Assembly (NCBI GenBank): GCA_963674595.2
Contig: CAXXFV010000029.1
Coordinates: 64,001-128,000 of the forward strand
From: a bacterium
GTDB lineage: Bacteria; Zhuqueibacterota; Zhuqueibacteria; Residuimicrobiales; Krinioviventaceae
Length of the DNA stretch: 64,000 nt
Direction of reading: 5' to 3'
Shown here: positions 1,041 to 54,307 of the stretch, in pieces
Layout: each line of letters starts with the position of its first letter
How positions within the stretch are numbered: position 1 is the stretch's first letter
Position numbers and translations under genes: made by a program
Notes under the pieces: model-generated
Databases searched by the model: none
What the model was told of the DNA's origin: nothing
Seen by the model: only the letters and a program-made list of their open reading frames with translations

Positions 1041-1144
1041 TTAGAATCCTCAGCGGTCCTCAGCGTTCTCTGCGCCTCTGCGTTTAAAGCATTTCTAAAT
1101 AGAACCACACCTTCCCCTCTCCCCCATTTTCCCGTATAAATAGC

Positions 1145-1173
1145 TTGCGCTAGTTCTGTATAATTTGTAATAT
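1145..1173 (+). promoter_or_regulatory. Repeated sigma70-like promoter, upstream of the DEAD helicase
   Basis: TTGCGC-17-TAATAT. Confidence 0.7.
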
Positions 1174-1295
1174 TCATGTGCCGCCATCTTTTAGGATCAG
1201 GTTATAACATTTACAGTCCAATTGATGACGCGGTGAAAATGAGCATCAAAAAACCAAAGAACAAAATTCTATATCTATAAAACAACGAGGTCCGA

Positions 1296-2759
1296 GTGAC
1301 AGATTCAAACAACAATGAAAATAAAGAACAACAGGAAAAACCGCCCGAGATAACGATCGAACAACTCCCCCCGGAACTGCGTGAAGCAGCAGGGCGCATA
1401 AAATGGTCAACCCTCACTCCTGTTCAGGCCCAGTCGATTCCACCCCTGCTTGAGAAAAAGAACATGATGATTCAGGCACGCACGGGCAGCGGCAAAACAG
1501 GGGCTTTTCTTCTCCCTATGCTCAAGGGGCTCGACGCGGAACAGAAGGTCTGCCAGGCCCTCATCCTGGTGCCGACCCGGGAGCTTGCGTCGCAGGTATG
1601 GCAGGAGGCCCAAATTCTATTCGGCGAAAACAGCTTGACGTGCACCGCTGTTTATGGCGGCGTGGGTTACGGCCAACAGATAGAGGCGTTGAAAAAAGGC
1701 GCCCAGATTGTTGTAGGAACTCCCGGCCGGGTGTTGGACCACTTGCTCAAACGTACCATGGATTTAAAACATTTAAAAGTGCTGATTTTTGATGAAGCGG
1801 ACCACATGTTGTCCATGGGGTTTTATCCTGATATGAAAAAACTCCAGACTCATTTGCCGAAACGCAAAATTCACACCTGCATGTTTTCAGCAACCTTTCC
1901 GTCTTTTGTAATGAGCGTTGCAAATCAGTTTATCCGCAACCCGGAATTCCTCAGTCTAAGCAGCGAACAGGTCCATGTTGCAGAGACGCAGCATGTTTAT
2001 TATATGGTTCCGGCAATGGACAAGGATCGCGGTCTGGTTCGTATTATCGAGGTGGAAAATCCGGCATCTGCTATTATTTTTTGCAACACCAAAGCCAACG
2101 TGGAATTTGTAACCATTGTGCTGCAACGTTTTGGTTATGATGCGGACGGCTTGACGTCCGACCTGACGCAACAAGCCCGCGAGCGGGTCTTGCAGCGTCT
2201 GCGAAAGGGCACACTGCGCTTTCTGGTGGCAACCGATGTCGCGGCCCGCGGCCTCGATATTCCGGAACTCTCCCATGTCATTCAATACGAAGCATCCGAT
2301 GACCTGGAGAGTTATATTCACCGGTCGGGCAGAACCGGACGCGCGGGGGCCAGCGGCACGGCAATAACCCTGGTGAGCCGATCTGAAATGCGGCTCATAA
2401 TTCGTATAGCAAACAAATATGACATTCCCCTGCAAGAGTGGCGCTTGCCTACAGACGATGACGTTGCAAAAATTGTCGCCCAGCGCCTGACCGCGCTTTT
2501 AGAGGCAAGACTCAGGGAACGCGATAAACTGCAAACGGAACGCAGTCTCAGGTTTTTGCCGCTCGCCAGGTCGCTTGCGGAAAATGAGGACGAGTCGGCG
2601 ATCATTACAATGCTTCTGGACGATTATTATCAGGAACAAATGCATGCCCCGCTGGTGCCGCTACAGGACATTCAACCGGCAGAAACAACATCGAATAAAA
2701 CCGGTCAGGGTCCGCGCAATAAAAAATACAGGCGCTATCGCCGCAAACCGAATCAATAG
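1296..2759 (+). CDS. DEAD-box ATP-dependent RNA helicase
   Basis: Q motif (TPVQ), ARTGSGKT, PTRELA, GG, TPGR, DEAD, SAT, ARGLD and HRSGRTGR motifs; basic C-terminal tail. Confidence 0.97.
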   Translation: MTDSNNNENKEQQEKPPEITIEQLPPELREAAGRIKWSTLTPVQAQSIPPLLEKKNMMIQARTGSGKTGAFLLPMLKGLDAEQKVCQALILVPTRELASQVWQEAQILFGENSLTCTAVYGGVGYGQQIEALKKGAQIVVGTPGRVLDHLLKRTMDLKHLKVLIFDEADHMLSMGFYPDMKKLQTHLPKRKIHTCMFSATFPSFVMSVANQFIRNPEFLSLSSEQVHVAETQHVYYMVPAMDKDRGLVRIIEVENPASAIIFCNTKANVEFVTIVLQRFGYDADGLTSDLTQQARERVLQRLRKGTLRFLVATDVAARGLDIPELSHVIQYEASDDLESYIHRSGRTGRAGASGTAITLVSRSEMRLIIRIANKYDIPLQEWRLPTDDDVAKIVAQRLTALLEARLRERDKLQTERSLRFLPLARSLAENEDESAIITMLLDDYYQEQMHAPLVPLQDIQPAETTSNKTGQGPRNKKYRRYRRKPNQ

Positions 2760-3229
2760 GTTCATGGCGTATGGAAAAGGAATTACCGGCTTGTTATGTT
2801 AAATAAGGAACATGCAAAGCCGTAGGGACCTGAGATGTCAAACTGCCCGGCCTTTCGACTCCGCTCAAGGCCCGGACTCTGTGGACGTTGAGCGAAGCCG
2901 AAGGGTGGCCTCATCCTGAGCGGAGTCGAAGGGTGACTGGATTCCTGCTTTCGCAGGAATGACGGGTTTCGATCACATTGTGTCCTTTGTGTATTCTTTG
3001 TGTCCGTTGTGGTAAAAAGATAACCATTTAAAAGTGATTCAATGCAGAGGTTGCAAAGGCGCGCAGAGGGAACCGGAAATTGCCCATCCTTAAAGCGGAC
3101 GCTGCCCGGCCTTTCGACTCCGTTCAAGGACCGGATTTTGCGGACGCTGAACGGAACCGAAGCGGGTGAACAGGGTAAAGCCCATTTTTATCTAGTATCC
3201 TGGAGAAAATTTTTAAGATGATCAAACCA

Positions 3230-3259
3230 TGTAGGGGTTAAAAATTTTTAACCCCTACA
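3230..3259. repeat. GTAG-footed REP palindrome TGTAGGGGTTAAAAATTTTTAACCCCTACA
   Basis: Perfect 30-bp palindrome; further copies at ~8112, ~52366, ~54472 and ~57005. Confidence 0.85.
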
Positions 3260-3320
3260 CATATCAATTGATCGCCCAAAGATTTCCGGGGCGAGCAAAA
3301 ATTAAAGGAAAGTAGCACAA

Positions 3321-4127
3321 ATGAATAAACGAATACTTTTTGTATTGATAGTGTGTTGTATGTTTTCATCTTTGTTGAATTCAATAAAAGCGCAAACGAA
3401 CTGCACATATTATTCAAAGAACAATTGTGATCAGGATCAGATTCTTGAATTACTTGATAGCTGTCCTTGTATTTATGATATAGATACAATCAAAGAATTT
3501 ATTATTAGATTATCAATTCCCGAAATAGAATTACCAAACTCTCTATTTGAAAATTCAATCGTTAGTAAAGTAATTATTGAAGAAAGTGGAGAAATAAATG
3601 CAATTTTATTAAGTAAATCAATCAATTCAAATGCAGATAGTCTACTTGTAAATTCAATATTAGAATCAAAATTTACTCAATATAAAGATACATCATATAC
3701 AAATACTAACTATTGTATTGCATTACCATATCATATACGAAACGGAAAAATCTTTTCATCCATTTATAGTCCAATAGATATAGTTCCATCACAAATGAAA
3801 AGATTAAAAGTAAATAGAAAAACATTTACCCAAACACAACTACCTGATGATACTCCACCTAAACCGATTGACGGTTTTGATGCTATTAAAAGAAATATTG
3901 AATATCCAATATCAGAAAGAGCAGCAGGAATTCAGGGAAAAGTTGTTATAAGAGTTGTTGTTGATGATATGGGAAATATAAGTTCATATCAAGTTTTAAA
4001 ATCTCCATCAAAGAAATTAGCAAAAGCTGCATACAAGGCAATTAAATCTGTAAAGTGGGTACCAGCAAAGCAGAATGGAAAGCCCATATCTGTGTGGGTA
4101 ACAATACCAATTTATTTTAAATTATAA
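3321..4127 (+). CDS. Energy transducer TonB C-terminal domain protein
   Basis: Signal peptide; C-terminal YP..ERAAGIQGKV...WVPAKQNGKPISVWVTIPIYFKL; very AT-rich. Confidence 0.85.
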   Translation: MNKRILFVLIVCCMFSSLLNSIKAQTNCTYYSKNNCDQDQILELLDSCPCIYDIDTIKEFIIRLSIPEIELPNSLFENSIVSKVIIEESGEINAILLSKSINSNADSLLVNSILESKFTQYKDTSYTNTNYCIALPYHIRNGKIFSSIYSPIDIVPSQMKRLKVNRKTFTQTQLPDDTPPKPIDGFDAIKRNIEYPISERAAGIQGKVVIRVVVDDMGNISSYQVLKSPSKKLAKAAYKAIKSVKWVPAKQNGKPISVWVTIPIYFKL

Positions 4128-4521
4128 TTGTTTAAAATATTGTTCACCTTGGGAATGTTTCCTGTGGCGCCAATCAGGCAAGGTATGTACACCGTTAAAT
4201 TTAAGGTTTTATAATTAATATGGACCCGTTATTTAAGAACGGATCAGGGCAATATGCCCTGTTTTATTTTACGGCCCGGAAAAGGAGTTCCGGGGCGAGC
4301 ATGGTTTTGCCGCACCATTGAGTATTTAATATATAAATAAATTCAGAGCCGTGTCACCCTGAGCGAAGTCGAAGGGTGACTGGATTCCTGCTTTCGCAGG
4401 AATGACGGGTTTTAAGCCCTTTGTGTGCTCTGTGACCTCTGTGAGAAAATATCCCTTCCCCATTTGCGTTTAAAGCATTTCTAAAAAAAATCACACCTTC
4501 CCCCATCTTTTTAAAAATCAT

Positions 4522-4550
4522 TTGCGCTAATACTGAATAATTTGTATTAT
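4522..4550 (+). promoter_or_regulatory. Repeated sigma70-like promoter, upstream of the first LVIVD gene
   Basis: TTGCGC-17-TATTAT followed by the conserved leader. Confidence 0.7.
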
Positions 4551-4916
4551 TCATTTATCAGCCACAAAAGACTATTTTCAGGACGATTGGATCGCGCATG
4601 GGAGTTCCTGATGTTCTTTTACTGGTTTTCCACTATCTATAAAAACGGGATTTAAAAGCATACACGAGGAAAAGATTGCGTCGGAGTCCATAGTACACTC
4701 TTGTTACTCCATGGTGTTAATTATTGGATCAGGTATGGTTTATTGAAAATAACAGGATGTCGGTTCTGCCAACCCACTCTGAAAAATATATAAAAAAAAA
4801 TTTCAATGGTGTGTTAAAAATCCATCCGAAAATCAGGAATTTAAAATCATAAAACAAGGGATCAAAAATATAAACTTGTAACTATCCGATTTATTATATA
4901 AAACAAGGAGAAAAGC

Positions 4917-7049
4917 TTGAAAAAGACATTTATTGTTCTATTTATTTATTTTTTAATTGCTCCACTATATAGTCAGGATGGCGATTTACAGCTTTTAAAC
5001 CATTGGCCGGATGGGCCTTGTTTCGCTGTTGCTAAATACAACGATATGATTTTAATAGGTAACGGAGCTTCATTAGACATTTTAGAAATTGACGATTCTC
5101 AACAAGTAAAATGTATCGGTAGAATGACAACACCGGGCGTTATTAAGAATATTGAAATTGCGGGGCAGTTTGCTTATGTCGCTGATTATGCTTCAGGGTT
5201 ACGGATCATATCGCTTGAAAATCCGCAAACGCCATTTGAAATCGGATTTTACAAGAGTTCCTGCAGGATAAATGATGTTGCAATTAAGGGAAATTATGCC
5301 TTTTTAGGCAGCGAATCGTTTGGTGTTAGAGTACTTGATATTAGCGACCCAGCTTCCCCAAAACAGGTTTCTACTTTTGAAACAGGGCAAACGTCGATGA
5401 ACACGTTAGAGATCGTTGGGGATTTTTTATATATTGCAGATGGTTTTTCCGGGATGAAAATATTTAATATTTCCAATCCGCTGTCTCTAACCCTGGTAAA
5501 AGAGTTTGCCACGCAACACAAAGCCATGGATATTTTCATTCAAGGGGATTATGCCTTTGTTGCCGATTATTTTAAAGGACTGCGAATTATAAATATAAAC
5601 GATCCGGCAAACCCTGAAGAAATTGGATTTTATGAAAAGAGTGAAATAATGACTTGGGGTGTTTCTGTATTTGGACACTATGCTTATCTGGCAAATTCTT
5701 ATAAAGGTATTTCTGTTTTAGATATTACAGATTTGCAAAATCCGGTAGAAATTGCAACTGCCGATACACCACATTTTGCTTATAACCTGGTTGTTGATGG
5801 ACAATATATATATGTTGCTGACTGGGATTCCGGTTTGAATATTTTTGAGGCTGGTGATTCTATCGGCTCCGCTCCTGTAGCCTCCTTTGCAACAAGCGGA
5901 CAAGTTGAAGATATAGTTGTTGAAAACGATATTGCATTTGTTGCCTATGGATATTCAGGATTACATATTATTGATGTCAGCAATCCATTTAATCTACAAG
6001 AACTATGTCGCGTGAAATTCCCGGTGCCTGTAACTCATGTGCAGGTGCAGGATAAACATGTTTTTGTTTCAAATTCAAATGGACTTTATATATATGACAT
6101 ATCCAATCCCAATAGTCCCAATGAAATTGGATGGATTGAGGCAAATTGTAATAATTTTACTATCAACAACAATCTTGTTTATCTATATAACGAGGGAGCC
6201 GGTCTTGAAATTTATGATATTTCCGATATAAATAGCCCTGTTTTTATTGCAGGCTATCCGATTAATGGATATTGGTGCCATGACATTAAATACCTTAATG
6301 GTCTCGTCCTGTTGTCCATAGGAGCACCTCCAAATTCCGGGCTGCATACGATTGATGTGCGCGATATTCACAATCCCACACTTTTGGATTTTTGGGACAT
6401 ATGTTATTACACAATCAGTATTTGGAATAATTCGGCTTATTTGTTAACGGCAAGCACACCCTCCAACTCTTTATATCGTCTTGATGCAAGCAATCCCGAT
6501 GCCTTAGAGAAATCCTGGGTATTTGAATGCGTGGGATCAGATTTTTTCATCAAAGATGATCTGGCCTACTTTACAAAGCGCGATATATATATATTTGATA
6601 TGAATCAGCCTGATGGACAACCAAATGAAATAGGATACTTGCCTGATTTATGGTACAATTCAAATGAGATTTATGTTGATGAAAGTCATGTTTATGTAAA
6701 TGATCAAAATGCTGGTTTTTTTATTTTTGACCATAGTACGATCAGTTGGGTACAAAAAGAGACCGGTCCCGAAAATTCTTGCACAATGAAAAGCTATCCA
6801 AATCCATTTAATTCCAGTGTAACAATGACTTTTCAAACAAGTAAAAGCAGTCCTGTAAATTGGGCTGTTTATAATTATATGGGACAAGAGGTTTTCAGCA
6901 AAGAATGTGGTGTTATGGCTGGGGGAATCCACCAGTTTAGATGGAATGGCGAAAACCATCATGGAACACCTGCCCCTTCAGGAGTATATTATATAAAAAT
7001 AGCGACCGACCATCAAATGGAAGTACAAAAAGTTACATTGATAAAATAA
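4917..7049 (+). CDS. Secreted LVIVD-repeat beta-propeller protein with YPNPFN/FlgD-Ig C-terminal domain
   Basis: Signal peptide; repeats of type AYVAD...GLRIIDISxP; YPNPFN...WNG...SGVYY C-terminus. Confidence 0.88.
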   Translation: MKKTFIVLFIYFLIAPLYSQDGDLQLLNHWPDGPCFAVAKYNDMILIGNGASLDILEIDDSQQVKCIGRMTTPGVIKNIEIAGQFAYVADYASGLRIISLENPQTPFEIGFYKSSCRINDVAIKGNYAFLGSESFGVRVLDISDPASPKQVSTFETGQTSMNTLEIVGDFLYIADGFSGMKIFNISNPLSLTLVKEFATQHKAMDIFIQGDYAFVADYFKGLRIININDPANPEEIGFYEKSEIMTWGVSVFGHYAYLANSYKGISVLDITDLQNPVEIATADTPHFAYNLVVDGQYIYVADWDSGLNIFEAGDSIGSAPVASFATSGQVEDIVVENDIAFVAYGYSGLHIIDVSNPFNLQELCRVKFPVPVTHVQVQDKHVFVSNSNGLYIYDISNPNSPNEIGWIEANCNNFTINNNLVYLYNEGAGLEIYDISDINSPVFIAGYPINGYWCHDIKYLNGLVLLSIGAPPNSGLHTIDVRDIHNPTLLDFWDICYYTISIWNNSAYLLTASTPSNSLYRLDASNPDALEKSWVFECVGSDFFIKDDLAYFTKRDIYIFDMNQPDGQPNEIGYLPDLWYNSNEIYVDESHVYVNDQNAGFFIFDHSTISWVQKETGPENSCTMKSYPNPFNSSVTMTFQTSKSSPVNWAVYNYMGQEVFSKECGVMAGGIHQFRWNGENHHGTPAPSGVYYIKIATDHQMEVQKVTLIK

Positions 7050-7210
7050 TTATAAACAATACGCTCGTCCCGGGATTCTACGTAAGGACGCATGAACACA
7101 AGGGCTGTGTCTTTTTACTTTATTCGAGGCAGGCGTCGAATCCAGTTTACCCAGTGGACTGACTTTACCTGTTAATTACATATAATTAATTATAACTTCC
7201 TGGAGGACTT

Positions 7211-7666
7211 TTGAATTATAAAACAAACCCGTATTACGCCAGAAAAATTTTTGCTACAATAATAGACTATGGATTATTTTTAATGGCCACTATTTTATAT
7301 ACAATGCTTATTGGGAGTCCAAATGACCAAGGCGTTTATTCTGTAAATGGGGTACCCGCTCTTATCATACCGACCCTTTGGTTTTTATATTTTATTATTA
7401 TAGAAGGAGAATACTCGAACACACTCGGACATTATTTTCTTAATTTAAAAGTAGTTCAAACAAATGGACAAAAAATTTCAATAAAACATTCCTTAAAAAG
7501 AAGATTATTGGATATTATAGATTTATTTTTTTATGGAATACCTGCACTAATTACAATTTCTAAAACGCCAAACAACCAAAGGTTAGGCGATCTTTGGGCA
7601 GAAACGCTGGTCGTCCATAAAGATGATGTCGAGCATATAAAAAAATATTTTAACAATGAAAAATAA
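7211..7666 (+). CDS. RDD family membrane protein
   Basis: R..A.IID, TLG...LKVV and QRLGDLWAET motifs. Confidence 0.88.
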   Translation: MNYKTNPYYARKIFATIIDYGLFLMATILYTMLIGSPNDQGVYSVNGVPALIIPTLWFLYFIIIEGEYSNTLGHYFLNLKVVQTNGQKISIKHSLKRRLLDIIDLFFYGIPALITISKTPNNQRLGDLWAETLVVHKDDVEHIKKYFNNEK

Positions 7667-7753
7667 TTATCTTGTAATAAATGTGTAATAATGCCAACCA
7701 GATTAATTCACAGGTCGAAACAATGTCATCTTGGGCGGAGCTAATGAGAACGT

Positions 7754-8576
7754 TGCCCGGCCTTTCGACTCCGCTCAAAGCCCGGACTCTGTGGACGTTG
7801 AGCGAAGCCGAAGGGTGGCTGGATTCCTGCTTTCGCAGGAATGACGGGTTTCGATCACATTGTGTCCTTTGTGTATTCTTTGTGTCCGTTGTGGTAAAAA
7901 GATAACCATTTAAAAGTGATTCAATGCAGAGGTTGCAAAGGCGCGCAGAGGGAACCGAAATTTGCCCATCCTTAAAGCGGACGCTGCCCGGCCTTTCGAC
8001 TCCGCTCAAGGACCGGACTTTGCGGACGCTGAACGGAATCGAAGCGGGTGAACAGGGTAAAGCCCATTTTTATCTAGTATCCCGGAAAAAATTTTTAAGA
8101 TGATCAAACCATGCAGGGGTTAAAAATCTTTAACCGCTACACATATCAACTGAACGCCCAAAGATTTTGCTGACGCTGCAACTTCCTGTGGCGCACATCA
8201 GGCAAGGTATGTACACCGTTAAATTTAAGGTTTTATAATTAATATGGACCCGTTATTTAAGAACGGATCAGGGCAATATGCCCTGTTTTATTTTACGGCC
8301 CGGAAAAGGAGTTCCGGGGCGAGCATGGTTTTGCCGCACCATTGAGTATTTAATATATAAATAAATTCAGAGCCGTGTCACCCTAAGCGGAGTCGAAGGG
8401 TGACTGGATTCCTGCTTTCGCAGGAATGACGGGTTTTAAGCCCTTTGTGTGCTCTGTGACCTCTGTGAGAAAATATCCCTTCCCCATTTGCGTTTAAAGC
8501 ATTTCTAAAAAAAAATCATACCTTCTCCCCATCTTTTTAAAAACCATTTGCGCTGGTTCTGTAGAATTTGTATTAT
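7754..8576 (+). repeat. Composite REP module, copy 2 (uninterrupted, ~820 bp)
   Basis: Near-identical to the two halves flanking tonB. Confidence 0.9.
8548..8576 (+). promoter_or_regulatory. Repeated sigma70-like promoter, upstream of dut
   Basis: TTGCGC-17-TATTAT. Confidence 0.7.
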
Positions 8577-8642
8577 GCATACTGTGAAATAAACAGTGCC
8601 TTTTGTGTTACATCTTAAAAACAAGGAAAAGAGAATTTTATC

Positions 8643-9077
8643 ATGCAAGTAAATATCAAAAATAATTCAAAACATCCATTGCCCCACTACTCAACCGAAC
8701 ATTCTGCCGGACTGGACCTGCGTGCAAATATCGACGAGCCCATCGTATTAAATCCCCTGGAGAGAGCGTTGGTCCCAACCGGACTGTTTATTGAGCTTCC
8801 CGAGGGATATGAAGCGCAAATTCGTCCCCGAAGCGGTTTGGCTTATAAACATGGATTATCTATATTAAATGCACCGGGAACAATCGATGCTGATTATCGG
8901 GGCGAGATTAAGGCGCTGTTGGTTAATTTGTCCAATGAACCATTCACCATACACGATGGCGATAGAGTCTGCCAAATGGTCATTGCAGCATACACAAAGG
9001 TTGATTTGATAAAAGTAGAGGAATTATCTGAAACGGTCAGGGGAGCCGGTGGATTCGGACATACCGGAAAAAAATAA
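8643..9077 (+). CDS. dut: dUTP diphosphatase
   Basis: [19 protein letters not shown] and [10 protein letters not shown] motifs. Confidence 0.97.
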
Positions 9078-9252
9078 CTATTTAAAACCGATTTAACAGA
9101 GATCACAAAGGCGTCACCCTGAGCGGCCTTTCGACTCCGCTCAAGGACCGAGTCGAAGCGGGAGCAGGAATGACAGGTTTCGAACGCTGCGTTTAAAGCA
9201 GTTCCGAAAAGAACCCCACCTTACCCACTCCCCTATTTTTCTTAAAAATCAT

Positions 9253-9281
9253 TTGCACCGGTTTTATTTAATTTGTATTAT
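9253..9281 (+). promoter_or_regulatory. Repeated sigma70-like promoter, upstream of hsdRSM
   Basis: TTGCAC-17-TATTAT followed by the conserved leader. Confidence 0.7.
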
Positions 9282-9481
9282 TCTTTTGATAGCCATATTA
9301 GACTTTTCAGGACAATTGGGGCGTGCATGGGAGTCCCTGATGTCCTTTTGCAGGTTTTCCATGATTATTAAAAACGGGATTTAATTACAAAATATATTGT
9401 ATTTATATTATTTACAAAACATTACCGAATTATGCTATGTGTTTAAATAATGATCTAAAATAAAATGAATGTGCATTAAAA

Positions 9482-17420: not shown

Positions 17421-17465
17421 AGAATTGCCCAAATGTAAAAGAATGGAAAGTAAAGGTTTAAGCTT

Positions 17466-43437: not shown

Positions 43438-43891
43438 GTAGAAATAGACCTAATCACCACGGAGGGATTGAGACATTTAACCACATTGCCATCATTTTTG
43501 AAAGCAAAAACTTCATGTAGAAATAGACCTAATCACCACGGAGGGATTGAGACAGTATCCACTTTGTTTGTTGTATAAGGACGTGGCACTTGCCGTAGAA
43601 ATAGACCTAATCACCACGGAGGGATTGAGACGTAAATACGAGCATCTGATAACAGATTAAGCCTTAATCTATGTGGAAATAGACCTAATCACCACGGAGG
43701 GGCCGTTTGCGGCAGGTTCGAAAATATTGTTCTTTATAAAGTGTTTTGCAATGTTACAGAAGCCATAACCTATGGTAAGCGTCCTTGCGTCGCTATGCTC
43801 CGCTGAGATTGAGAACTAATAAAAACGAATCAAAGAAAGACCTGATCACCACGGAGGGGCCGTTTGCGGCAGGTTCGGGAGTATTGTTCTT
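43438..43891 (+). CRISPR. Orphan CRISPR array: 3 perfect 37-bp repeats, 3 spacers of 41-42 bp, 2 degenerate terminal repeats
   Basis: GTAGAAATAGACCTAATCACCACGGAGGGATTGAGAC at 43438, 43517 and 43595; partial copies at 43673 and ~43835; unique spacers; no cas genes in the window. Confidence 0.93.
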
Positions 43892-44062
43892 CTGCTCTAC
43901 TTGGGAATCTTTCCCAAGGCGCAAATTAACCGGGGTATTTACCCCGATAAACCCAAGGTTTATTGATGTAAATAATAATATGGGCCCGTTATTTGAGAAC
44001 TGATCAGGGCAAAATGCCCTGGTTTATTTAACGCCCCGGAAAAGGAATTCCGGGGCGAGCAA
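43892..44062. mobile_element. ~170-bp REPIN/MITE-like doublet made of two inverted two-hairpin units
   Basis: Starts (C/T)TGCTC.. hairpin and ends hairpin ..GGGGCGAGCAA; copies at 4140-4301, 8165-8324, ~18000-18135, 35531-35667, and reversed at 52202-52350 and 54279-54460. Confidence 0.75.
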
Positions 44063-44139
44063 AGAGTTATAAAATATATACTATGTCATCAAACTCGTTT
44101 AATCCTATGTTATACAAGTAATTAATTATAATATCAGGA

Positions 44140-45087
44140 GTGAGGATGTTAATGATTGATAAGTTGATAGCTGTTGATTTGAGAGAAATTTGGAGGAATG
44201 AAGCTCGAAATTTTACTACTTGGTTATTCAATAATTTAGATATTTTAAATGAGCAGATAGGACTTGATTTGAGTTCTTTGGAAACTGAAAAATCCGCAGG
44301 TGTTTTTTCAGTTGATATATTAGCAGAAGATAGGAGTGGCAGATTAGTAATAATTGAAAATCAGCTTGAAAAAACTGATCATGACCATCTTGGTAAAGTA
44401 TTAACATATTTAGCAAATTTAAGTGCCAAGATTGGGATATGGATTTCTCCTGATCCACGTCCTGAGCACGCGAAGACAATTGATTATTTAAATGAAATCG
44501 CACCTGACGACACTCATTTTTTCTTAATAAAAATACAAGCATTCAAAATAGGGGAATCTAAGCCTGCTCCTTTTTTTTCTATAATTGCAGGACCAAATCC
44601 TGAAGTTACTGCTGGAGGGAAAATAAAAAAAGAATTAGCGGAAAGTGGTCAAAAGAGGTATATGTTTTTTGAACAATTACTGACCTTATCAAATAAAAAA
44701 ACAAATCTATTTAATAATATATCTCCTAATGCATATCAGGGGTGGGTTGGAGCAGGAGCAGGTAAATTTGGCCTTGCGTGGAATTATGTTATCATGTTAT
44801 CAAAAAGTAGGATTGAATTTTTTATTTGTTCTCCAGATGCTGAACTAAACAAAAAAAGGTTTGAATATTTCTTTTCTCATAAAAATGAAATTGAAAATGA
44901 TTTTGGTGGTAAAATAGATTGGGATTTTAAGGAAGGTCGAAAACAACATTACATAAAATCATGGTCAAATACTGGTGGTCTCCAAGATGAAGAAAAATGG
45001 TTAAAAATACAAGAAGATCTTATAGATAAAATGGTTAGACTAGAAAGGGTTTTACATAAATACATATTAAAAATTAATAATATATAA
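44140..45087 (+). CDS. DUF4268 domain protein with N-terminal NucS-like PD-(D/E)xK domain
   Basis: W.NEAR.FT.WL, VDILA...IIENQL..TDHDHLGK.LTY. Confidence 0.82.
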   Translation: MRMLMIDKLIAVDLREIWRNEARNFTTWLFNNLDILNEQIGLDLSSLETEKSAGVFSVDILAEDRSGRLVIIENQLEKTDHDHLGKVLTYLANLSAKIGIWISPDPRPEHAKTIDYLNEIAPDDTHFFLIKIQAFKIGESKPAPFFSIIAGPNPEVTAGGKIKKELAESGQKRYMFFEQLLTLSNKKTNLFNNISPNAYQGWVGAGAGKFGLAWNYVIMLSKSRIEFFICSPDAELNKKRFEYFFSHKNEIENDFGGKIDWDFKEGRKQHYIKSWSNTGGLQDEEKWLKIQEDLIDKMVRLERVLHKYILKINNI

Positions 45088-45580
45088 ATTTTTATATGAT
45101 AATAAAAAACTGATCATCCCGGGGCTTTACCCTGGGACGTAATAAACCGAGGGTTTGGCCCTCCAACTTGGTGAACGATTATAGTCTGTGCCCATTTTCA
45201 GCCTTAAGCTGTTGTTCTACCGCACCATTGTGTGATTAATTCAAAAATCAATTCAGCTTTAACGCAGAGGCCGCAAAGGTGCGCAGAGGAAACCGGGAAC
45301 AAAATAAACTTAAAGCGGACACTGAGCGGAGTAAAAGCGAGGTACTTTTGGGATGGGGGATAAAATCCCGGTTTTATTGAGCGGAAAAATATTTTATATG
45401 TAAAGTTAAAAAAATAATGTAAATTCTATATGGATTCCTTATTCGTCAAGTGACAAGGTAAACAGAATTTAATTGTTTATCCAAATTCTCTTACTTTCAT
45501 TGTCGGCCCGGTTAAATGCTAAATGATGCATAAAATAAACCCTAATATTTTTTCACAATTAAAAAGTAGCGAGGTGAAAA

Positions 45581-46174
45581 ATGGCCAATTCTCAACATCC
45601 AAAAACGAGTGCAAAGGTACAACCCCTGCTTACTGAGGAAGAACGAACTGCATGTGAAAACATAAGCTTATCTGAAGACTTTGGAAAACATGCAAAGGCT
45701 TTGCTTGCTTTAGACCAGGGACTTACACAAGCTCAGGCTGCTGAAAAAAGCGGTCTCTCTGCCGGGCAGGTGCGTTACTGGATTGCAAAATTTAAAAAAG
45801 AGAGATTGAATATTTTTCCAGAGCCAACCCTGTCACAACTCTCTGTAAAAAGTGAGCCTCTCGTTCAAGAAAAATCCGAGACGGAAAATAAAACAGATGA
45901 GGCTAAAGAACAAAAAGTCCCTAAAAAAAGTTCAAAGCCGAAAAAGAAAGATTCTAAAAAACAGGAAAAAACAAAGGCAAAATCTCAAAAAGATAAAAAG
46001 AAATCCAAAAAAAATAAAGAAAAGGATTCTCCCAAGAAAAACAAGAAAGATTCTTCTAAAAAAAGTAAAAAAAAGGATTCACCCAAAAAAGAAAAAAAAG
46101 GGGATAAAAAGAATAAATCATCAAAGAAAAAGGACAAAAAAGTAAAAAAGAGCAAAAAGACCAGGAAAAAATAA
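45581..46174 (+). CDS. HTH domain protein with Lys-rich C-terminal tail
   Basis: GLTQAQAAEKSGLSAGQVRYW helix-turn-helix; about 85 aa of KK(D/S/K)-rich tail; GAGGTG RBS. Confidence 0.75.
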   Translation: MANSQHPKTSAKVQPLLTEEERTACENISLSEDFGKHAKALLALDQGLTQAQAAEKSGLSAGQVRYWIAKFKKERLNIFPEPTLSQLSVKSEPLVQEKSETENKTDEAKEQKVPKKSSKPKKKDSKKQEKTKAKSQKDKKKSKKNKEKDSPKKNKKDSSKKSKKKDSPKKEKKGDKKNKSSKKKDKKVKKSKKTRKK

Positions 46175-46444
46175 GTATGTTTAGTTGGTCACCCTGTCCG
46201 GCAAGCCTGCAGCAAAAGTTGATTCTGGTGGTACTTTCGTCCTTAAGCCCTACACTGTGACGTAATAAACTGAGGGCCAGGCCCTCCAACTTTTTGAATA
46301 ATTGCAGGCTGTGCCCATTTTTAGGTCCCGGCAACAGACTAAAATTTGGTACAGAAAAGTTGGGTTTAATGGAATGAACAACTTACAACTGAATGCAGTC
46401 ACTGTAAATATAACTAAAATAAAACCATGTTAGAGTTTTAGAAT

Positions 46445-47296
46445 ATGAAAAAAAATCAAATATTTTGGATATTAGGAATTGTTATTTTATGCAGTATAAA
46501 ATTATTTTCTCAAGGTAATAATGAAAGAGATATAATTTTATTTGAAAAATCTTTTGAAAACAATGATATTGAAATGTTGGATCATTTTTTTGAAACTTGG
46601 GAAAATCAATCAACCCCAATATCAAAAAATGAACTCTCAAAACTATCTAAAATTAAAAAATATACTTATTCTCTTTTTCAAACATTTTATTATCCTTTCG
46701 GAATTCATGAAAGAGATATTCCAAAAGAATTTCGCAAAAAAAACTCTGATCCTGATTCTTTGGAAAAGTTATTTTTACCATATAAAAAACCAGAGTATAT
46801 TATTTTACAGAATAATATTTATATGGGAATAGTAAATGATTTTAAAAAAATAATAGATACAAATGAGTTTAATGTAGATCAATTTATTGTTTCTAAGGAT
46901 AGCATTTTAAATTTTCGCCCGACTGTTGATGTAAAAAATAAAAAAGGATTATTTATAAAAGAAAAATATTATGATATTTTTTATGATTTTGTGATGGATA
47001 GTTTAGAATATTTGGCTCGCGGAGATGAAAAAGATCATGAAATGTATTTAGATCTATGTAAAGTTGCTGATAGAAAAATGGATTTTTTAAAATCAAAAAT
47101 TGGTATACAATATGGCCATTGGGGAGGAATTCATGTCGAAACATTGCCATTTGTACATCTAATCTTGTTTAATAAAGGAATGTGGTTGGCAAAAGTTTAT
47201 TTTAGAGAAACCTGGTGGACTGGTGGAGAGGCTTATTATATTCGAATAGGAAATATATGGATCAAATTATACAGAGGGCAAACCTGGATTCAATAA
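46445..47296 (+). CDS. Hypothetical exported protein
   Basis: 283-aa AT-rich ORF with signal peptide; conserved-looking GHWGG.HVETLP C-terminus. Confidence 0.65.
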   Translation: MKKNQIFWILGIVILCSIKLFSQGNNERDIILFEKSFENNDIEMLDHFFETWENQSTPISKNELSKLSKIKKYTYSLFQTFYYPFGIHERDIPKEFRKKNSDPDSLEKLFLPYKKPEYIILQNNIYMGIVNDFKKIIDTNEFNVDQFIVSKDSILNFRPTVDVKNKKGLFIKEKYYDIFYDFVMDSLEYLARGDEKDHEMYLDLCKVADRKMDFLKSKIGIQYGHWGGIHVETLPFVHLILFNKGMWLAKVYFRETWWTGGEAYYIRIGNIWIKLYRGQTWIQ

Positions 47297-47675
47297 ATTA
47301 GACAAAAGTTACTCGCAGGCTGCGCCCATTTTCAGCCGCAGGGTTTGGTTCTACTGCACCATTGTGTTAAAATTAAATTCAAAAAAGTGTCACCTTGAGC
47401 GGAGTAGAAGGGTGATACTTTTGGGATGGGGATGAAATTTCGGTTTTATTGGTTCTGCGGGCTATGCCTTCCTATATGCACAAAACTGGCATGTCATACA
47501 CTGACATAAAATAGCATTTTTCCCTTCTTTGTGATCTCCGTGCCCTTTGTGAGAAAAAAGTTACACCGTTCCTCAAATTTCACCCCCCCTTTCCCAAAAT
47601 CCAACAATAAATTGGGTTGCATTCCAGCTTAAAATCTTTTATTTTATTTAAATTTTTTAAGAGGAGGATGCAACG

Positions 47676-49253
47676 ATGGAACTGTTCGCCGGAATTGACA
47701 GCTCGACCCAGGGCACAAAACTGATCATACTTGACGTTAAAGAAGAGAAAGTTGTCTATCTGGATGCTGTTAATTACGATAAAGATTTACCCCACTATAA
47801 AACCCGTGACGGTGTTGTCACCGGACTCGAAGAAGGCGTTTCCGAGTCTGACCCCATGATGTGGATCGAGGCCCTTGAGGTTTTGTTCACACGTTTGCAA
47901 AAATCCGATATACCCCGGCAGTACATCAAGGCAATATCTGTTTCCGGGCAGCAGCACGGCCTGGTAACGCTGGATGAAAACGGCGAATTGACCCGCTGCC
48001 GAAGCAAGCTGTGGAACGATTTCAGTACCGGTAAAGAGTGTCAATTAATGACCGACGCCCTCGGCGGTATGAATGAGATGGTCCTGGCTGTGGGCAACAG
48101 TCAGCGCACCGGTTATACGGCCGCCAAAATATATTCCATGGCGCGTAACCAACCGGAGGGTTTTGCCAAAACCACCACCTGTTTTTTGGTGCATAATTTT
48201 ATAAACTGGTATCTCACCGGCGGCAAAAACGGCGGTGTGCGGGTGATGGAACCCGGCGATACCTCGGGCATGGCCCTGTGGAACCCGGAAACCGGCACGT
48301 GGTCTGAAAAGCTGATGGATTTTATTTCACCGGATTTAAAAAACAAAATCCCGCCGTTGAAACCAAGTGACGAAATGATCGGCAAAATCGGTAAAAACCT
48401 CGCGGAGAAATACGGATTTTCCCCGGACTGCTGGATCGATGCGGGCAGCGGCGACAATATGTACGGCGCGGTGGGTACCGGTAACGTGGAGCCGGGCATT
48501 GTTACCATCAGCCTGGGCACCAGCGGAACGGCCTATACGTTTTTAAACGAACCCTATGTTGACCCCAATGGTGAAATTGCCGCTTTTTGTGACAGCACCG
48601 GCCATTATTTGCCGCTGCTGTGTGTGTCCAATCTGGCCAACGGATACAATGCGGTGTTGAATAATTACAACATGTCCCATGAAGAATTTGTGCAGGTGGT
48701 TGACCAGACGCCGGTGGGCAATGAGGGCCGGATGCTGATTCCCTGGTACATGGGCGAACGCACCCCGGACGTCCCCATGGCGAGTCCGGTTTATTTTGGA
48801 TTTGGTCTGGATGATTTTACCAAAGAAAAACTGTGCCGTGCGGTTCTCGAAGGCCATATTTTGAATTTGTACGACGGCTTTCAAAAAATGCCGGTAAAAC
48901 CCAAAGAAATCCGGTTGACCGGCGGACTGGCACAGTCCAATGCATGGCGGCAGACCATTGCCGATGTGTTTAATGCCGAAGCAGTCCCTGTGGAAGGCGA
49001 AGGCGCGGCCCTGGGCGCAGCGCTGCACGCGGCCTGGGTCTATTCCAAACAGATTGGACAGCCAAAGCCGCTGACTGAAATGAGTGCGCCTTTTGTGATT
49101 TTGAACAACAAAAAACGAAACAAACCCGTGCCGGAACATGTAAATATTTATAACAAACAAAAGGACATGTTTCATGCCCTGAGCGCGCGTGTGAGAGGAC
49201 TGCAAACCCATCAGGATCCCTTTGCGGCACGCATGGAGATGCTGGCAGATTAG
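47676..49253 (+). CDS. xylB: Xylulokinase (FGGY family)
   Basis: GIDSSTQGTK, SGQQHG, GDN, SLGTSGT and GERTP motifs. Confidence 0.85.
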   Translation: MELFAGIDSSTQGTKLIILDVKEEKVVYLDAVNYDKDLPHYKTRDGVVTGLEEGVSESDPMMWIEALEVLFTRLQKSDIPRQYIKAISVSGQQHGLVTLDENGELTRCRSKLWNDFSTGKECQLMTDALGGMNEMVLAVGNSQRTGYTAAKIYSMARNQPEGFAKTTTCFLVHNFINWYLTGGKNGGVRVMEPGDTSGMALWNPETGTWSEKLMDFISPDLKNKIPPLKPSDEMIGKIGKNLAEKYGFSPDCWIDAGSGDNMYGAVGTGNVEPGIVTISLGTSGTAYTFLNEPYVDPNGEIAAFCDSTGHYLPLLCVSNLANGYNAVLNNYNMSHEEFVQVVDQTPVGNEGRMLIPWYMGERTPDVPMASPVYFGFGLDDFTKEKLCRAVLEGHILNLYDGFQKMPVKPKEIRLTGGLAQSNAWRQTIADVFNAEAVPVEGEGAALGAALHAAWVYSKQIGQPKPLTEMSAPFVILNNKKRNKPVPEHVNIYNKQKDMFHALSARVRGLQTHQDPFAARMEMLAD

Positions 49254-49549
49254 CAGGTATTTTATTCTTCACACAAAGAACACAAAGTGAAAATGAATAT
49301 TTTCTTCTTTGTGACAATTATGTTAAACGAGATACAGATTAAAAAGTAGACTTTTTTAACCACAAAGGACACAGAGATTACACAAAGAACACAAAGAAGG
49401 AACAATATCTATTTAATTTCAAAGACCGAGTCCTGCCATTGCTGTGAATGCAGGAATCCGGATATTTTTTCAGTTTTCTTTGTGAACCTTGTGTTAAACG
49501 AGATACAGATTAAAAAGTAAGATTATTTTATTTAAGAGGAGATATTATT

Positions 49550-50320
49550 ATGGCTGATGTCATTGATTACAAAATAATCGGCGACGATATGCAGTTGGTG
49601 GAAATTGAACTGGACCCCGGTGAAGGCGTTCGCGCAGAAGCCGGCGCCATGACATATATGGAGCAGGGTATTGAAATGCAAACCGGTGCAGACGGCGGCC
49701 TTTTTAAAGGATTCAAACGTATGCTGACCGGTGAGAGTTTTTTCATCACCACGTTTATGTATAACGGACGCGGTAAGGGTCATGTTGCATTTGGCGCACC
49801 CTATCCCGGAAAAATCATTCCCCTGGAAATAGGCCAACTCGGCGGACAGTTTTTGTGTCAAAAAGACGCGTTCCTGTGCGCTGCCAAAGGTGTGGACATA
49901 GAAATTGCGTTTACCAAACGCATCGGCGCAGGTTTGTTCGGCGGTGAAGGTTTTATCTTACAGCGTTTGGAAGGCGACGGCCTGGCCTTTGTTCATGCCG
50001 GCGGTACTATTGTAAAAAAAGAGCTGGCTTCCGGCGAACGTTTACGTGTGGATACCGGCTGTTTGGTGGCGTTTTCACCCACAGTCGATTATGACATTCA
50101 ATTCATCGGCGGATTTAAAAACGCCCTGTTTGGCGGTGAAGGTGTTTTTCTCGCCAATTTGACCGGCCCCGGAACGGTTTATCTGCAAAGTCTGCCGTTC
50201 TCCAGACTCGCGGACCGCATTTTTGCCGCATCAAGATCCAATCGCGGTGAAAGCAAAGGTGTTGCCGGTATTGGCGGTGATCTGCTGGGCGGATTACTCG
50301 GCGGTGACAAAAATTTTTAG
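49550..50320 (+). CDS. TIGR00266 / AIM24 family protein
   Basis: [38 protein letters not shown]. Confidence 0.92.
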
Positions 50321-50331
50321 TATATGCACAG

Positions 50332-50361
50332 CCCCTGTTTTTAACAGGGGTTTTGTTTTTT
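50332..50361 (+). terminator. Intrinsic terminator
   Basis: CCCCTGTT-TTT-AACAGGGG plus T-tract after the AIM24 gene. Confidence 0.7.
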
Positions 50362-50525
50362 GTATTTTTAACCACAAAGGTCAGAGCATACACTATGGAC
50401 ACAAAGAAGAAATAAAAGGGCACAGCCCTTGAATTAATTCGTCCACCAGTAGGATCCCATAGACGATCGATTTATTTCGGAAGGCACTAACTTACATTTG
50501 TCCTTTCTTAAGGAGGTTATTTATC

Positions 50526-51923
50526 ATGAACAGAAGGACCTTTCACAAAAGTTTACTTTCCCTGGTCGGCACGACCCTGTTTTGCGGGACAGGCGCTGAA
50601 AAGAAACCCAATATTTTGTTTCTGTTGTCCGATGACCATCGCTGGAACGCCATGGGCTGTATGGGAAATTCCATTGTAAAAACGCCCAATCTGGATAGGC
50701 TCGCGTCCCAGGGTTTTACCTTTACCAACCATTTTTGTACAACATCTATATGTATGACAAGCCGGGCCGGCATATTCAGCGGACTTTATGCACGCGCGCA
50801 TACCATCAACCGTTTTGATGTGCCTTTTACCCCGGAACAGTTTTCCAAAACCTATCCTGCTTTGTTGAAAAAAGCCGGATACCGTACCGGGTTTGTGGGC
50901 AAATGGGGCCTGGGCGGTGACCGGCCGGAAAGCGAATTTGATTATTTTAACGGGTTCTCGGGACAGGGGCATTATTTCCCGGAAGGCGAAGGCACGGGAA
51001 AACATTTGACAACCGTTATTTCCGATAATGCCGTCGAGTTTATGGAATCCTGCACCGGCGATCAGCCCTTTTGTTTATCTGTCAGCTTTAAATCACCGCA
51101 CGTACAGGACGAAGACCCGCGCCAGTTTTTATATGACCCCCAATATGAGGATTTGTATAAAACAGACGAAATACCGGTCCCGGAAACAGGTACGGAGGAA
51201 GCATTTGCCAATCTGCCGAAAAAGCTGCAAACATCCGAAGCCAGACGACGCTGGAAAATGCGTTTTTCCACACCGGAAAAATATCAGGAATCCGTTAAAA
51301 GCTATTACCGGCTCATCACCGGCATGGACCGGCAGGTCGGCCGTATGCGGGATGTTTTGAAAAAACTCGGACTCGATAAAAATACCGTCATAATTTATAC
51401 ATCTGATAACGGCTTTTACCTGGGTGAACACGGACTGGCCGGCAAATGGTTTATGCACGAAGAATCGGTGCGGCTGCCGCTTATCATTTATGATCCCAGA
51501 CGCTCCGACGGCGGCAAACAAATTGATAAAATGACCCTGAATATCGACATGGCCCCGACCATGCTCGACATCGCCGGTGTGCCCATACCGGTTGACAGAC
51601 AGGGTAAAAGCGCCATGCCCCTTATTAAGGACCCCGATACTAAAGGGCGCAGCGAATGGTTTTATGAACACACTTTTGATCATGGACGGATTCCCAAAAG
51701 CGAAGGCGTTTATACTAAAGAGTGGAAATATATTCGTTATATTGACGAGGACCCTGTTGTTGAGGAGCTTTACAACCTGGCCAAAGATCCCCATGAGAAG
51801 CGCAACCTGGCGAACGAACATTATTATGAGCCGGTGTTGATTGAAATGCGCGGGAAATGGCGGGCCTGGCGGGATGGTCTTGAAGACTGGCGTCCGAATG
51901 TGAAATGGCAGAATCCGGCCTAG
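50526..51923 (+). CDS. Sulfatase with Tat signal
   Basis: NRRTF, PNILFLLSDD, CMTSR, GKW, SDNG, GEH. Confidence 0.92.
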   Translation: MNRRTFHKSLLSLVGTTLFCGTGAEKKPNILFLLSDDHRWNAMGCMGNSIVKTPNLDRLASQGFTFTNHFCTTSICMTSRAGIFSGLYARAHTINRFDVPFTPEQFSKTYPALLKKAGYRTGFVGKWGLGGDRPESEFDYFNGFSGQGHYFPEGEGTGKHLTTVISDNAVEFMESCTGDQPFCLSVSFKSPHVQDEDPRQFLYDPQYEDLYKTDEIPVPETGTEEAFANLPKKLQTSEARRRWKMRFSTPEKYQESVKSYYRLITGMDRQVGRMRDVLKKLGLDKNTVIIYTSDNGFYLGEHGLAGKWFMHEESVRLPLIIYDPRRSDGGKQIDKMTLNIDMAPTMLDIAGVPIPVDRQGKSAMPLIKDPDTKGRSEWFYEHTFDHGRIPKSEGVYTKEWKYIRYIDEDPVVEELYNLAKDPHEKRNLANEHYYEPVLIEMRGKWRAWRDGLEDWRPNVKWQNPA

Positions 51924-51928
51924 TGTGA

Positions 51929-51959
51929 GGGGTCCATATTTTGGACCCTTTTGTTTTTT
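51929..51959 (+). terminator. Intrinsic terminator
   Basis: GGGTCCA-TATTT-TGGACCC plus T-tract after the sulfatase. Confidence 0.7.
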
Positions 51960-52201
51960 CTCGTCCTTCGGGATTTGATACGGCTGATATTTCAGTTATA
52001 GCTTGTCTCAATCTCAACAAAACACATCGATTTTAAAAAAGAGCATAATGTCATCTCATCAAAGATCGAGACATATTATTCCTGCTAAAACGATGGATAT
52101 AAAATAGAGTGTCATTCTGTAAGAATCTTTCCTGGATATAGAGCAGATTATAAGTCAGGGAAGATGCCTCCGGCATGACATTTTTGTTATATCTAGAAAA
52201 A

Positions 52202-52630
52202 GTTAAATAAACCGGGACATTTTGGCCCGATCAGTTCTTAAATAACGGGCCTATATTAATATTGACATTATAAAACCTTAAATTTATCGGGGTAAATACC
52301 CTGCCTGATTTGCGCCCTGAAAAAATTTTAGGGTCAGTAAAATCTTTGGGCGATTAATTGATATGTGTAGGGATTAAAAATTTTTAACCCCTACATGGGT
52401 TGATCGTCTTGTAAATTTCATCCAGGATACTAGATAAAAATGGGCTTTACCCTGCTCCCGCTTCGGCTTCGCTCCCGCTTCGACTCCGCTCAGCGTCCGC
52501 TTCAAGTATGGGCCTTGAGCAGAGCCGAAAGAGGTCCTTGAGCGGAGCCGAAAGGCAGATCAGGGTGACACCGGTCTGACTTTTTTTAGATTAATCTCAA
52601 TATGGTATGGTAGAACAGCCCCCTTACGGC
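52202..52630 (+). repeat. ~430-bp direct repeat, left copy
   Basis: Near-identical to 54308-54741. Confidence 0.92.
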
Positions 52631-52886
52631 ATTAATACTTGACACGTATTGCGATTATCTTTACATTAAATCATAATATTAGAGATACATGGGATTTTAA
52701 ACATGGGAACTCGGTTAAGGATATAAGGAGCCAAAATTTTACAAGCTCCATCCCCATGTAAACGTATTCTATCTGTTCTTTTAAACAAACATTTCGGGCC
52801 ATTAGAAGTAAAGTCTGTAAAAGCAGTCACTATATATAAAAGTTATTTTAACAGCTTGGTTTATATCATTTTTAGAGGGAAAAATA

Positions 52887-54191
52887 ATGATAAAACGAAA
52901 AATCTTTATTATCCTTTTAATAATATGGTGTTCTGCTCTCAGGGCAGATGAAATAGATTGGACGGTTTATACCGAAGAAAACAGCGGTTTGGGATGTAAT
53001 TATGTTTTTGTTATTGCCCACGATAAACTGCAAAATGTGTGGTTTGCAACATACGATGGTCTCTATCTCTTTGACGGTCAACACTGGACAACCTATGATA
53101 CCACAAATTGCGACATAATTTCAAACAGAGTCAATGCAATGGCAATCGATTCCAACGATGTCAAATGGCTTGGATTTACGGCTAACATTAAATGTGGTAT
53201 TTCAAGTTTTGACGACCAGAATTGGAAAAATTACTATAAAGCTGAAAATCAGCTATATCCAACAACGGTTATGACGATTGCCGTAGACAGGGAAAATAAA
53301 AAATGGTTTGGTCAGTATGGTGCCGGCCTTACATCATTTGATGAAAACTCGTGGCATTTCTATCATCCCTTCACTTCTGAAATTGGATGGGGAACTATTT
53401 TATGTATGGTTCCGGATTCAAAAAATAAACTGTGGGTTTGTACATCAGACGTTGGAGATGCTGTTTGTGCCGGTGTAAATATTTTGGATGGCGAAAACTG
53501 GTCACAGATTGATAAATCCAACAGTGATCTTGTTTCAAACAGTGTATATGCCATGGCCATTGACAAGAATGGGGTAAAATGGTTTGGTACAAACAAAGGT
53601 GTCTGCTCATTTGACGGTGAACACTGGCAAACATTCGATAGCGGAAACAGTGATTTAATTTCTAACAATGTTGTTACGATAGCTGTTGACAGTGCTAATA
53701 GAAAATGGTTTGGCACATATAATCATGGATTAATGCAATTTAACGAGAACAACTGGACGCTTTACAACACGGCTAACAGTCCCCTGCCCGGTAATGAAAT
53801 TCAACATATTTCTGCTGACAAAAAGGGAAATATTTGGGTGGCAACGGATAAAGGTGTTGCAACCACCGCAACAAGTGTATCGGTAAAAAATAAAATCCCT
53901 GATTCCAGTGTATTTTTCAAATTATTCCCCAATTATCCTAATCCATTTAATAACCAAACCTGTATTACATATAATTTACAAACCAGGTCGATTATAAAAA
54001 TTCAGATTTTTGATATTTTAGGCAAAAATATTATGACGTTAATTGATAATATGCAATCACCCGGATCACATAAAATATATTGGAACGGTAAGGACTCATC
54101 AAGAAATAGTGTTCCAAGCGGTCTTTATTTTGTTAAATTTTACATAAACAATACGGAGCAGCAAATCCAAAAAATAATGCTGATAAAATAA
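52887..54191 (+). CDS. Secreted beta-propeller (two-component-regulator propeller repeats) with YPNPFN/FlgD-Ig domain
   Basis: Repeats of type SN.V..IA.D....WFGT..G...FDG..W; YPNPFN...WNGKD...SGLYF. Confidence 0.85.
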   Translation: MIKRKIFIILLIIWCSALRADEIDWTVYTEENSGLGCNYVFVIAHDKLQNVWFATYDGLYLFDGQHWTTYDTTNCDIISNRVNAMAIDSNDVKWLGFTANIKCGISSFDDQNWKNYYKAENQLYPTTVMTIAVDRENKKWFGQYGAGLTSFDENSWHFYHPFTSEIGWGTILCMVPDSKNKLWVCTSDVGDAVCAGVNILDGENWSQIDKSNSDLVSNSVYAMAIDKNGVKWFGTNKGVCSFDGEHWQTFDSGNSDLISNNVVTIAVDSANRKWFGTYNHGLMQFNENNWTLYNTANSPLPGNEIQHISADKKGNIWVATDKGVATTATSVSVKNKIPDSSVFFKLFPNYPNPFNNQTCITYNLQTRSIIKIQIFDILGKNIMTLIDNMQSPGSHKIYWNGKDSSRNSVPSGLYFVKFYINNTEQQIQKIMLIK

Positions 54192-54219
54192 TATTACAAA
54201 TTCTAAAAAATTAGCGCAG
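54191..54219 (-). promoter_or_regulatory. Repeated promoter copy in antisense orientation with an altered -35 box
   Basis: On the minus strand: CTGCGC-17-TAATAT, pointing into the 3' end of 52887-54191. Confidence 0.55.
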
Positions 54220-54307
54220 GTGGTTTATCAGAAAATGGGCAGGTGTTTATTGGGGGTAAAAGCCCTGACTATTTGGCTTTGCTCGCACTGGAAATATTTT
54301 CCAGTGC

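Follow-up and report, generated by a model that had tools for sequence, protein, structure and literature searches.

A 64,000-nt stretch of bacterial DNA (contig CAXXFV010000029.1, positions 64,001-128,000, assembly GCA_963674595.2; hereafter the window, in which all positions are numbered) carries ten copies of a promoter-like module, P, which comprises a -35 box, a 17-nt spacer, a -10 box and a homologous stretch upstream. The explanation that we consider probable is that an RpoD-type host promoter, together with a hairpin leader (H), became the constant 3' end of recombining spacers made of repetitive extragenic palindrome (REP)-like repeats, and was duplicated with new genes behind it.

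A first-pass annotation of the window had placed P at ten positions, all of which are correct. The strict pattern that it proposed, TTGC(G/A)C-N17-TA(A/T)TAT, is exact in eight copies, compared with 0.06 expected per window under a Markov-1 model; the copies at 32585 (-10 TATCGT) and 54219 (-35 CTGCGC) deviate from it. A hidden Markov model (HMM) built from the ten copies and searched with nhmmer recovers exactly the same ten with E <= 6e-14; these scores are circular, as the model was built on the same copies, while the gap to the next match (E 0.37) is not. Upstream homology reaches approximately -28 in every copy. The proposal that the hexamers and an exact 17-bp spacing are conserved while the first half of the spacer drifts is borne out by the distribution of non-consensus cells, which number 10/120 in the hexamers, 30/110 at spacer positions 1-11 (Fisher p 2e-4 for hexamers against proximal spacer) and 2/60 at spacer positions 12-17 (AATTTG). 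The 17-nt spacing is invariant in 10/10 copies, although both flanks differ in length. At the six key positions (-35 TTG and -10 TAnnnT) the match is complete but for one cell of 60, which is in the 54219 copy, the sole copy that faces a gene end. The family is apparently lineage-restricted: a GTDB scan with a promoter+GCCA pattern that fits 7/10 window copies returned no matches, by exact matching only, which diverged relatives would escape; blastn of 32720-33000 against plasmids and phages gave no match; and the best hits of the P and H HMMs in helicase loci (the best 80 of 536; 1,238,435 nt) had E values of 4.7 and 1.7.

P is likely, judged from its sequence, to be a housekeeping-sigma (sigma-70/RpoD-type) promoter, because conservation is higher in the hexamers than in the proximal spacer, the spacing is 17 nt throughout, and the same grammar recurs at unrelated sites and in a Caldithrix sp. 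genome. The family as a whole has the -35 TTG and -10 TAnnnT of RpoD/sigma-70 promoters, 17 nt apart. Nine of the ten -10 boxes fit TA[ATC][ATC][AT]T, given as the RpoD -10 box of Chlorobaculum tepidum (10.1101/172254), while the Bacteroidetes -7 box TAnnTTTG occurs in none of the ten. A purine lies 6-7 nt past the -10 box in 9/10 copies, which is only suggestive of a start site. The grammar TTGnnn-N15-TG-TAnnnT is found at two non-homologous intergenic sites, 61849(+) before corA and 40575(-) before an oxidoreductase gene, at one intragenic site, and at position 2280 of the Caldithrix sp. locus L001, about 60 nt ahead of an open reading frame (ORF). Promoter-like sites with the same 17-nt grammar and unrelated to P were observed at 19899, 43146, 47617, 52639 and 61849 (+) and at 40575 and 61901 (-); the site at 19899 follows the same upstream repeat and sits in the slot that P occupies elsewhere.

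Nine copies face a gene start, as had been claimed, at distances of 67-382 nt, and the labels given to the downstream genes hold; these belong to different Pfam families and have no common function. On the forward strand, P with its hairpin mostly lost (1117-1186; -35 1145-1150, -10 1168-1173) faces a DEAD-box helicase gene (1296-2759), and P followed by H (~4557-4627) and an extension, E (4494-4728; -35 4522, -10 4545-4550), faces an LVIVD/FlgD gene (4917-7049). The third copy is P alone, with homology ending just past the -10 box (8520-8577; -35 8548, -10 8571-8576), and faces dut (8643-9077). P with H and an AT-rich extension precedes type I restriction-modification (R-M) genes at 9482-15030 (9225-9422; -35 9253, -10 9276-9281), and the copy that shares this extension (22092-22289; -35 22120, -10 22143-22148) precedes a GmrSD/DUF262 gene (22429-24174). 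At 24889-24982 (-35 24917, -10 24940-24945) H is truncated exactly at an inverted REP-like tag, and the copy faces a ygiD-like dioxygenase gene (25052-25804). The most diverged P, with a short-loop H, lies on the reverse strand (32468-32613; -35 32585-32580, -10 TATCGT 32562-32557) before a serine hydrolase gene (31375-32406). Two further forward copies carry H and E: that at 32726-32961 (-35 32754, -10 32777-32782) faces a second LVIVD/FlgD gene (33164-35482), and that at 41111-41334 (-35 41139, -10 41162-41167), with a short-loop H, faces a STAS/SpoIIAA-like gene (41432-41800). The tenth copy (54179-54247, reverse strand) has the broken -35 box CTGCGC at 54219-54214; its -10 box and start region extend into the 3'-terminal codons of the forward-strand gene 52887-54191, an arrangement that suggests a join by microhomology. 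Co-duplication of the LVIVD genes was considered as a source of shared leaders and was rejected, since the two proteins are 22% identical and their leaders 77%.

The spacers in which P is found are mosaics of repeats, which cover 8,931 of the 15,861 non-coding nt of the window and only 235 coding nt. In many of them the order on the gene strand is stop codon, tagged REP-like hairpin or doublet, CGTC-type palindromes, short tandem units, P, H and gene. A REP-like tag lies within 55 nt downstream of 10 of 42 stop codons, compared with 3.6% of random windows. At these gene ends a tagged hairpin with a bulged base starts 5-34 nt past the stop codon (for example at 7061, 24187, 31131, 45110, 57332 and 60146), a placement that is attC-like without the attC consensus, and a CGTC-type palindrome is present as five 28-nt tandem copies at 57096-57247. 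Direct repeats bracket two stretches of genes. The LVIVD and RDD genes lie between 2844-4528 and 7754-8554; in the first of these, block A (2844-3285, forward, REP-like hairpins) is a direct repeat of 7754-8167, and block B (4159-4528, forward) matches 8183-8554 almost completely as far as the -35 box, where identity falls. Blocks A' and B' are contiguous in the second copy (7754-8554, forward), which thus presents the empty form of a site that holds a TonB_C gene (3321-4127, forward) in the first, inside the first hairpin of a REP-doublet-like unit; this filled site spans 3268-4165 and has three empty copies, at 8150-8200, 17983-18030 and 52300-52357. The gene at 52887-54191 lies between block R' (52202-52630, reverse) and block R (54308-54741, reverse, upstream of the 54219 copy), which are direct repeats with 97% identity over 434 nt. 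An assembly artefact was rejected as the source of the family, because it could not have produced copies whose cores share 55-97% of their sequence, although a misjoin at the 97% repeats could have affected the order of genes.

Comparison of individual copies places breakpoints within and around P. The 4522 and 8548 copies show 8-9 differences, counted by eye, in the ~370 nt upstream, and then differ at 5 of the 10 spacer positions after the -35 box (Fisher 7e-6); this jump in divergence therefore points to a recent duplication or a conversion tract that ends inside P. The 22120 and 24917 copies are 94% identical over 86 nt, with an upstream identity of 48% against a background of 47%. Further downstream the 22120 copy is closest to that at 9253; nearest neighbours switch between segments. 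Direct repeat pairs tend to be more similar the nearer they lie (Spearman -0.38 over 71 direct pairs, which are not independent of each other).

Taken together, we propose that ancestral P was an RpoD-type promoter of a Calditrichota/KSB1-like host with H as its original structured 5' leader, and that it became the constant 3' end of composite intergenic spacers made of REP-like hairpins. P would not be self-mobile; the spacers would recombine, through local duplication, gene conversion and the integration of repeat-flanked genes, with crossovers often falling within or just past P, such that P would be duplicated and new genes placed downstream of it, with H complete, truncated or absent. Where a gene lies downstream, selection would retain the -35 box, the AATTTG/-10 region and the 17-nt spacing. 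This account builds on homology, the pattern of conservation, the order of the mosaics, the breakpoints, one filled/empty pair and absent transposon ends, all of which are observed directly; it postulates transcription, selection, a recombination route with its enzyme, and a foreign origin of most downstream genes. The earlier description of P as a mobile promoter spread by the repeat system is thus upheld in part: a homologous module does stand before unrelated genes and has spread alongside the repeats, but mobility as a discrete element finds no support.

The phylogenetic signal of two genes bears on the origin of the sequences behind P. The nearest organism-labelled homologues of mtnA in the window are from Calditrichaeota and KSB1 and are 66-74% identical, whereas all six organism-labelled homologues of dut among the 120 matches listed are from Bacteroidia; dut therefore looks, from these matches, like an import from Bacteroidia that landed behind P. 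The suggestion that P had been recruited by housekeeping genes is doubtful in consequence, as dut looks imported and the helicase case is ambiguous. Organism-labelled homologues of the helicase are from Anaerolineae (5) or unassigned (2).

A number of observations weigh against the proposed history. The examination of foreign origin covers dut and the helicase only; for the latter, the best GTDB match among the best 80 of 536 is Caldithrix sp. (L001), at 79%. The L001 locus has no P module, and its nucleotide similarity to the window begins 19 nt before the start codon; on this one comparison, either the P module replaced the upstream region of the helicase gene or L001 differs for other reasons. 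A survey of the window's 41 ORFs, plus 88 additional frames, revealed no recombinase, integrase or transposase. Near-identical inverted copies of other modules (90-92%) lie ~50 kb apart, so spread has not been only local; the distance test had returned 0/28 inverted pairs at 90%, a figure that is contradicted by these shorter ungapped pairs. A generic sigma-70 scan of 1-20000 gave 64 sites where 57 were expected, and most P copies fell below its threshold. The P copies are homologous, and the column counts and the start-site purine are non-independent observations. The orientation of P towards genes is weak evidence, because it can be tested only for the six copies in tandem gaps (6/6 co-oriented, p = 1/64) and because neighbouring non-promoter repeats lean the same way (7:1, 5:1, 4:2, 5:3, 3:1). 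Finally, the leaders are up to 382 nt long and AT-rich, and could hold second promoters that serve those genes.

The first-pass annotation described P as often the last module of a repeat mosaic, which is not borne out, as 7/10 copies run on into H. P is usually the front part of a 100-240 bp unit, with shared sequence that extends to ~+130 in five copies and to ~+200 in three. The two ends of H, of which the 5' one lies at the predicted +1, pair with each other, and the 3' one is followed by a short run of U. These features, along with the long leaders of the copies that bear H, would fit a multicopy small-RNA gene encoding an ~80-nt hairpin RNA, to which the downstream genes are incidental. 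A three-helix model of H in six copies has 94 of 108 cells paired, but pairing is lost in the other 14, and no more than one change is a clear compensation; a binomial test on this pairing was set aside, since its 1/6 null ignores transition bias and one inner helix was off register. Fold z-scores range from -2.4 to +1.8, with one of seven below -2, the RNAalifold consensus of H is weak, and the Rfam search returned no family at the gathering threshold, two regions giving chance-level matches only; ARAGORN likewise found nothing. P is, moreover, retained in three copies that lack H and in one (24917) in which H is cut. We regard the small-RNA gene as rather unlikely, and H looks like the decaying leader of an ancestral promoter. 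A 79-codon open frame was observed at 32878-33117 (forward) in the extension after H; the 41139 copy preserves this frame over its first 28 codons. A coding origin of H and E was rejected; the 32878 frame has no NCBIfam or Pfam match and is shorter or broken in other copies.

P might instead be a neutral passenger of expanding REP mosaics, promoter-like by descent, with most copies unselected. The orientation bias common to other modules, the decay of H and the one copy that faces a gene end would all be expected of a passenger, but conservation specific to the boxes and a spacing that stays invariant between flanks of varying length would not, and the only break in TTG is in the copy that has no gene behind it (chance ~1 in 10). 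On balance neutral descent seems to us quite improbable. Still less credence attaches to the idea that the conserved core is the binding site of a regulator or site-specific recombinase and not a promoter: the AATTTG block is the best conserved part of the core, one breakpoint falls inside the core and the 4522 copy contains a perfect 8-bp dyad, but the best mean dyad across copies is 4.9/8, which 13% of column shuffles match, the breakpoints are not at a single fixed base, the downstream genes share no function, and the AATTTG/ATTTG-TA grammar also occurs at unrelated promoter-like sites; a binding site is accordingly a very improbable origin. A non-autonomous transposon with an outward promoter, similar to the Correia elements of Neisseria, is the least probable of these alternatives, for although P(+H+E) is multicopy, intergenic, hairpin-bearing and upstream of genes, and inverted 11-nt tags (24838+, 24977-) bracket the 24917 copy, those tags belong to a different repeat family, no transposase remnant was detected in the 88 scanned frames, and P lacks terminal inverted repeats above shuffle level (0/10 copies), target duplications (0/10) and fixed ends (the right ends of homology vary from +30 to +208), because of which we do not take it for a transposon.

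The genes of the window are mostly singletons, with GC fractions from 0.22 to 0.53, and co-oriented runs of unrelated genes of very uneven GC were observed at 6-31121 and 41432-54191 (forward) and at 54756-61827 (reverse). Defence-like genes include the type I R-M system and HEC-05/GmrSD- and PDC-S11-like genes; there is also an orphan Imm26 immunity gene. A 93-aa ORF at 60160-60441 (reverse), followed by a tagged hairpin, has no Pfam, NCBIfam or PADLOC match; on visual inspection it seems GIY-YIG-like. An orphan CRISPR-like array at 43438-43709 contains three full 37-nt repeats and one degenerate repeat, with a promoter-like site at 43146; the window has no cas gene.

A bolder possibility, which we put forward tentatively and think unlikely to hold in full, is that the spacers form an integrase-free platform for gene capture, in which a dedicated enzyme encoded elsewhere would process the REP-like hairpins, single genes from other phyla would enter as cassettes, and the host promoter already in place would make them expressible at once. 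The filled and empty TonB_C sites, the tag after 10/42 stop codons and the Bacteroidia-like dut would fit such a platform. If it exists, it would remove the barrier of promoter incompatibility, for instance for Bacteroidetes genes.

Several known systems resemble these spacers in part. An integron has a tyrosine integrase, IntI, with an attI site, attC sites after its genes and one Pc promoter heading a promoterless cassette array. The window shares with integrons the co-oriented unrelated single genes, defence-like ones included, and the hairpin directly after many stop codons. The analogy with Pc drawn by the first-pass annotation nevertheless fails, as the 41 ORFs include no integrase, a simple pattern test for attC sites (RYYYAAC...GTTRRRY) found none at 42 gene ends, and there is a promoter per gene: P is repeated ahead of single genes and other gaps have promoter-like sites of their own, unlike a single Pc heading a promoterless array. 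The Correia repeat enclosed elements (CREE) are described as providing neighbouring genes with sigma-70 promoters and an mRNA hairpin (PMC2649163), and in this they resemble P with H. CREE have terminal inverted repeats, a target duplication, fixed lengths and a partial promoter (PMC2649163). P lacks such repeats, duplications and fixed lengths, and its promoter is complete; the ends and duplications of miniature inverted-repeat transposable elements or Correia-type elements are absent from all ten copies. The modules neighbouring P fit the CGTC-1 REP layout (an 8-bp stem starting AT, a 4-nt loop and a CCA tail) and GTAG-ended palindromes (PMC3733652), labels that were assigned from the descriptions in that paper. 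P, unlike the CGTC and GTAG REPs, is non-palindromic, and no gene for a REP-associated tyrosine transposase (RAYT) was found among the 41 ORFs and 88 further frames.

In organization the spacers resemble the Neisseria intergenic mosaic elements (NIME), which are intergenic mosaics with a 20-bp palindrome, dRS3, similar to one in the window (PMC1797815). NIME arrays have been proposed to promote recombination and the insertion of array-flanked genes, and none were seen outside Neisseria by that study (PMC1797815). The mosaics of the window differ in that they mix several REP-like families, are polar and often end in a promoter, and their neighbours are unrelated genes where those of NIME are surface-antigen alleles (PMC1797815). 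The alternation of dRS3 (ATTCCC-N8-GGGAAT) with RS that defines NIME is absent, and a one-pair variant alternates regularly only at 758-1045. By analogy, the mosaic would work like a NIME array with a promoter attached, but is not one. The open-access literature yielded no description of such spacers for KSB1/Calditrichota.

By sequence criteria, P is best classed as a family of putative mobile promoters (PMPs), larger and denser than the usual pair. PMPs are homologous upstream sequences before unrelated genes with no known element (PMC3575422), as P is. The identity of at least 80% over at least 50 nt upstream is found in the 22120/24917 pair (94% over 86 nt) and in several other pairs (80-86%), and the coding sequences downstream are dissimilar in nucleotide sequence, being of different Pfam families with only 235 coding nt in any repeat. 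Relative to the PMP position of -150 to -50, four copies lie within ~150 nt of a gene and five at 201-382 nt; the match between the 8548 and 24917 copies (82% over 51 nt) exceeds this interval by ~7 nt. PMP families are mostly pairs (PMC3575422), whereas P has ten copies in 64 kb, in a stereotyped mosaic with visible crossovers. That paper also states that the route by which reused promoters move is unknown (PMC3575422); in the window, mosaic spacers that recombine and cross over within the promoter provide a candidate route. Provided that the copies are active, they would show how a cell can place imported genes, among them those for restriction and other defence-like functions, under a promoter of its own. 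Reused promoters are already known and, as the evidence stands, P does not constitute a new class of element; what is unusual here is the density of the copies and their packaging.

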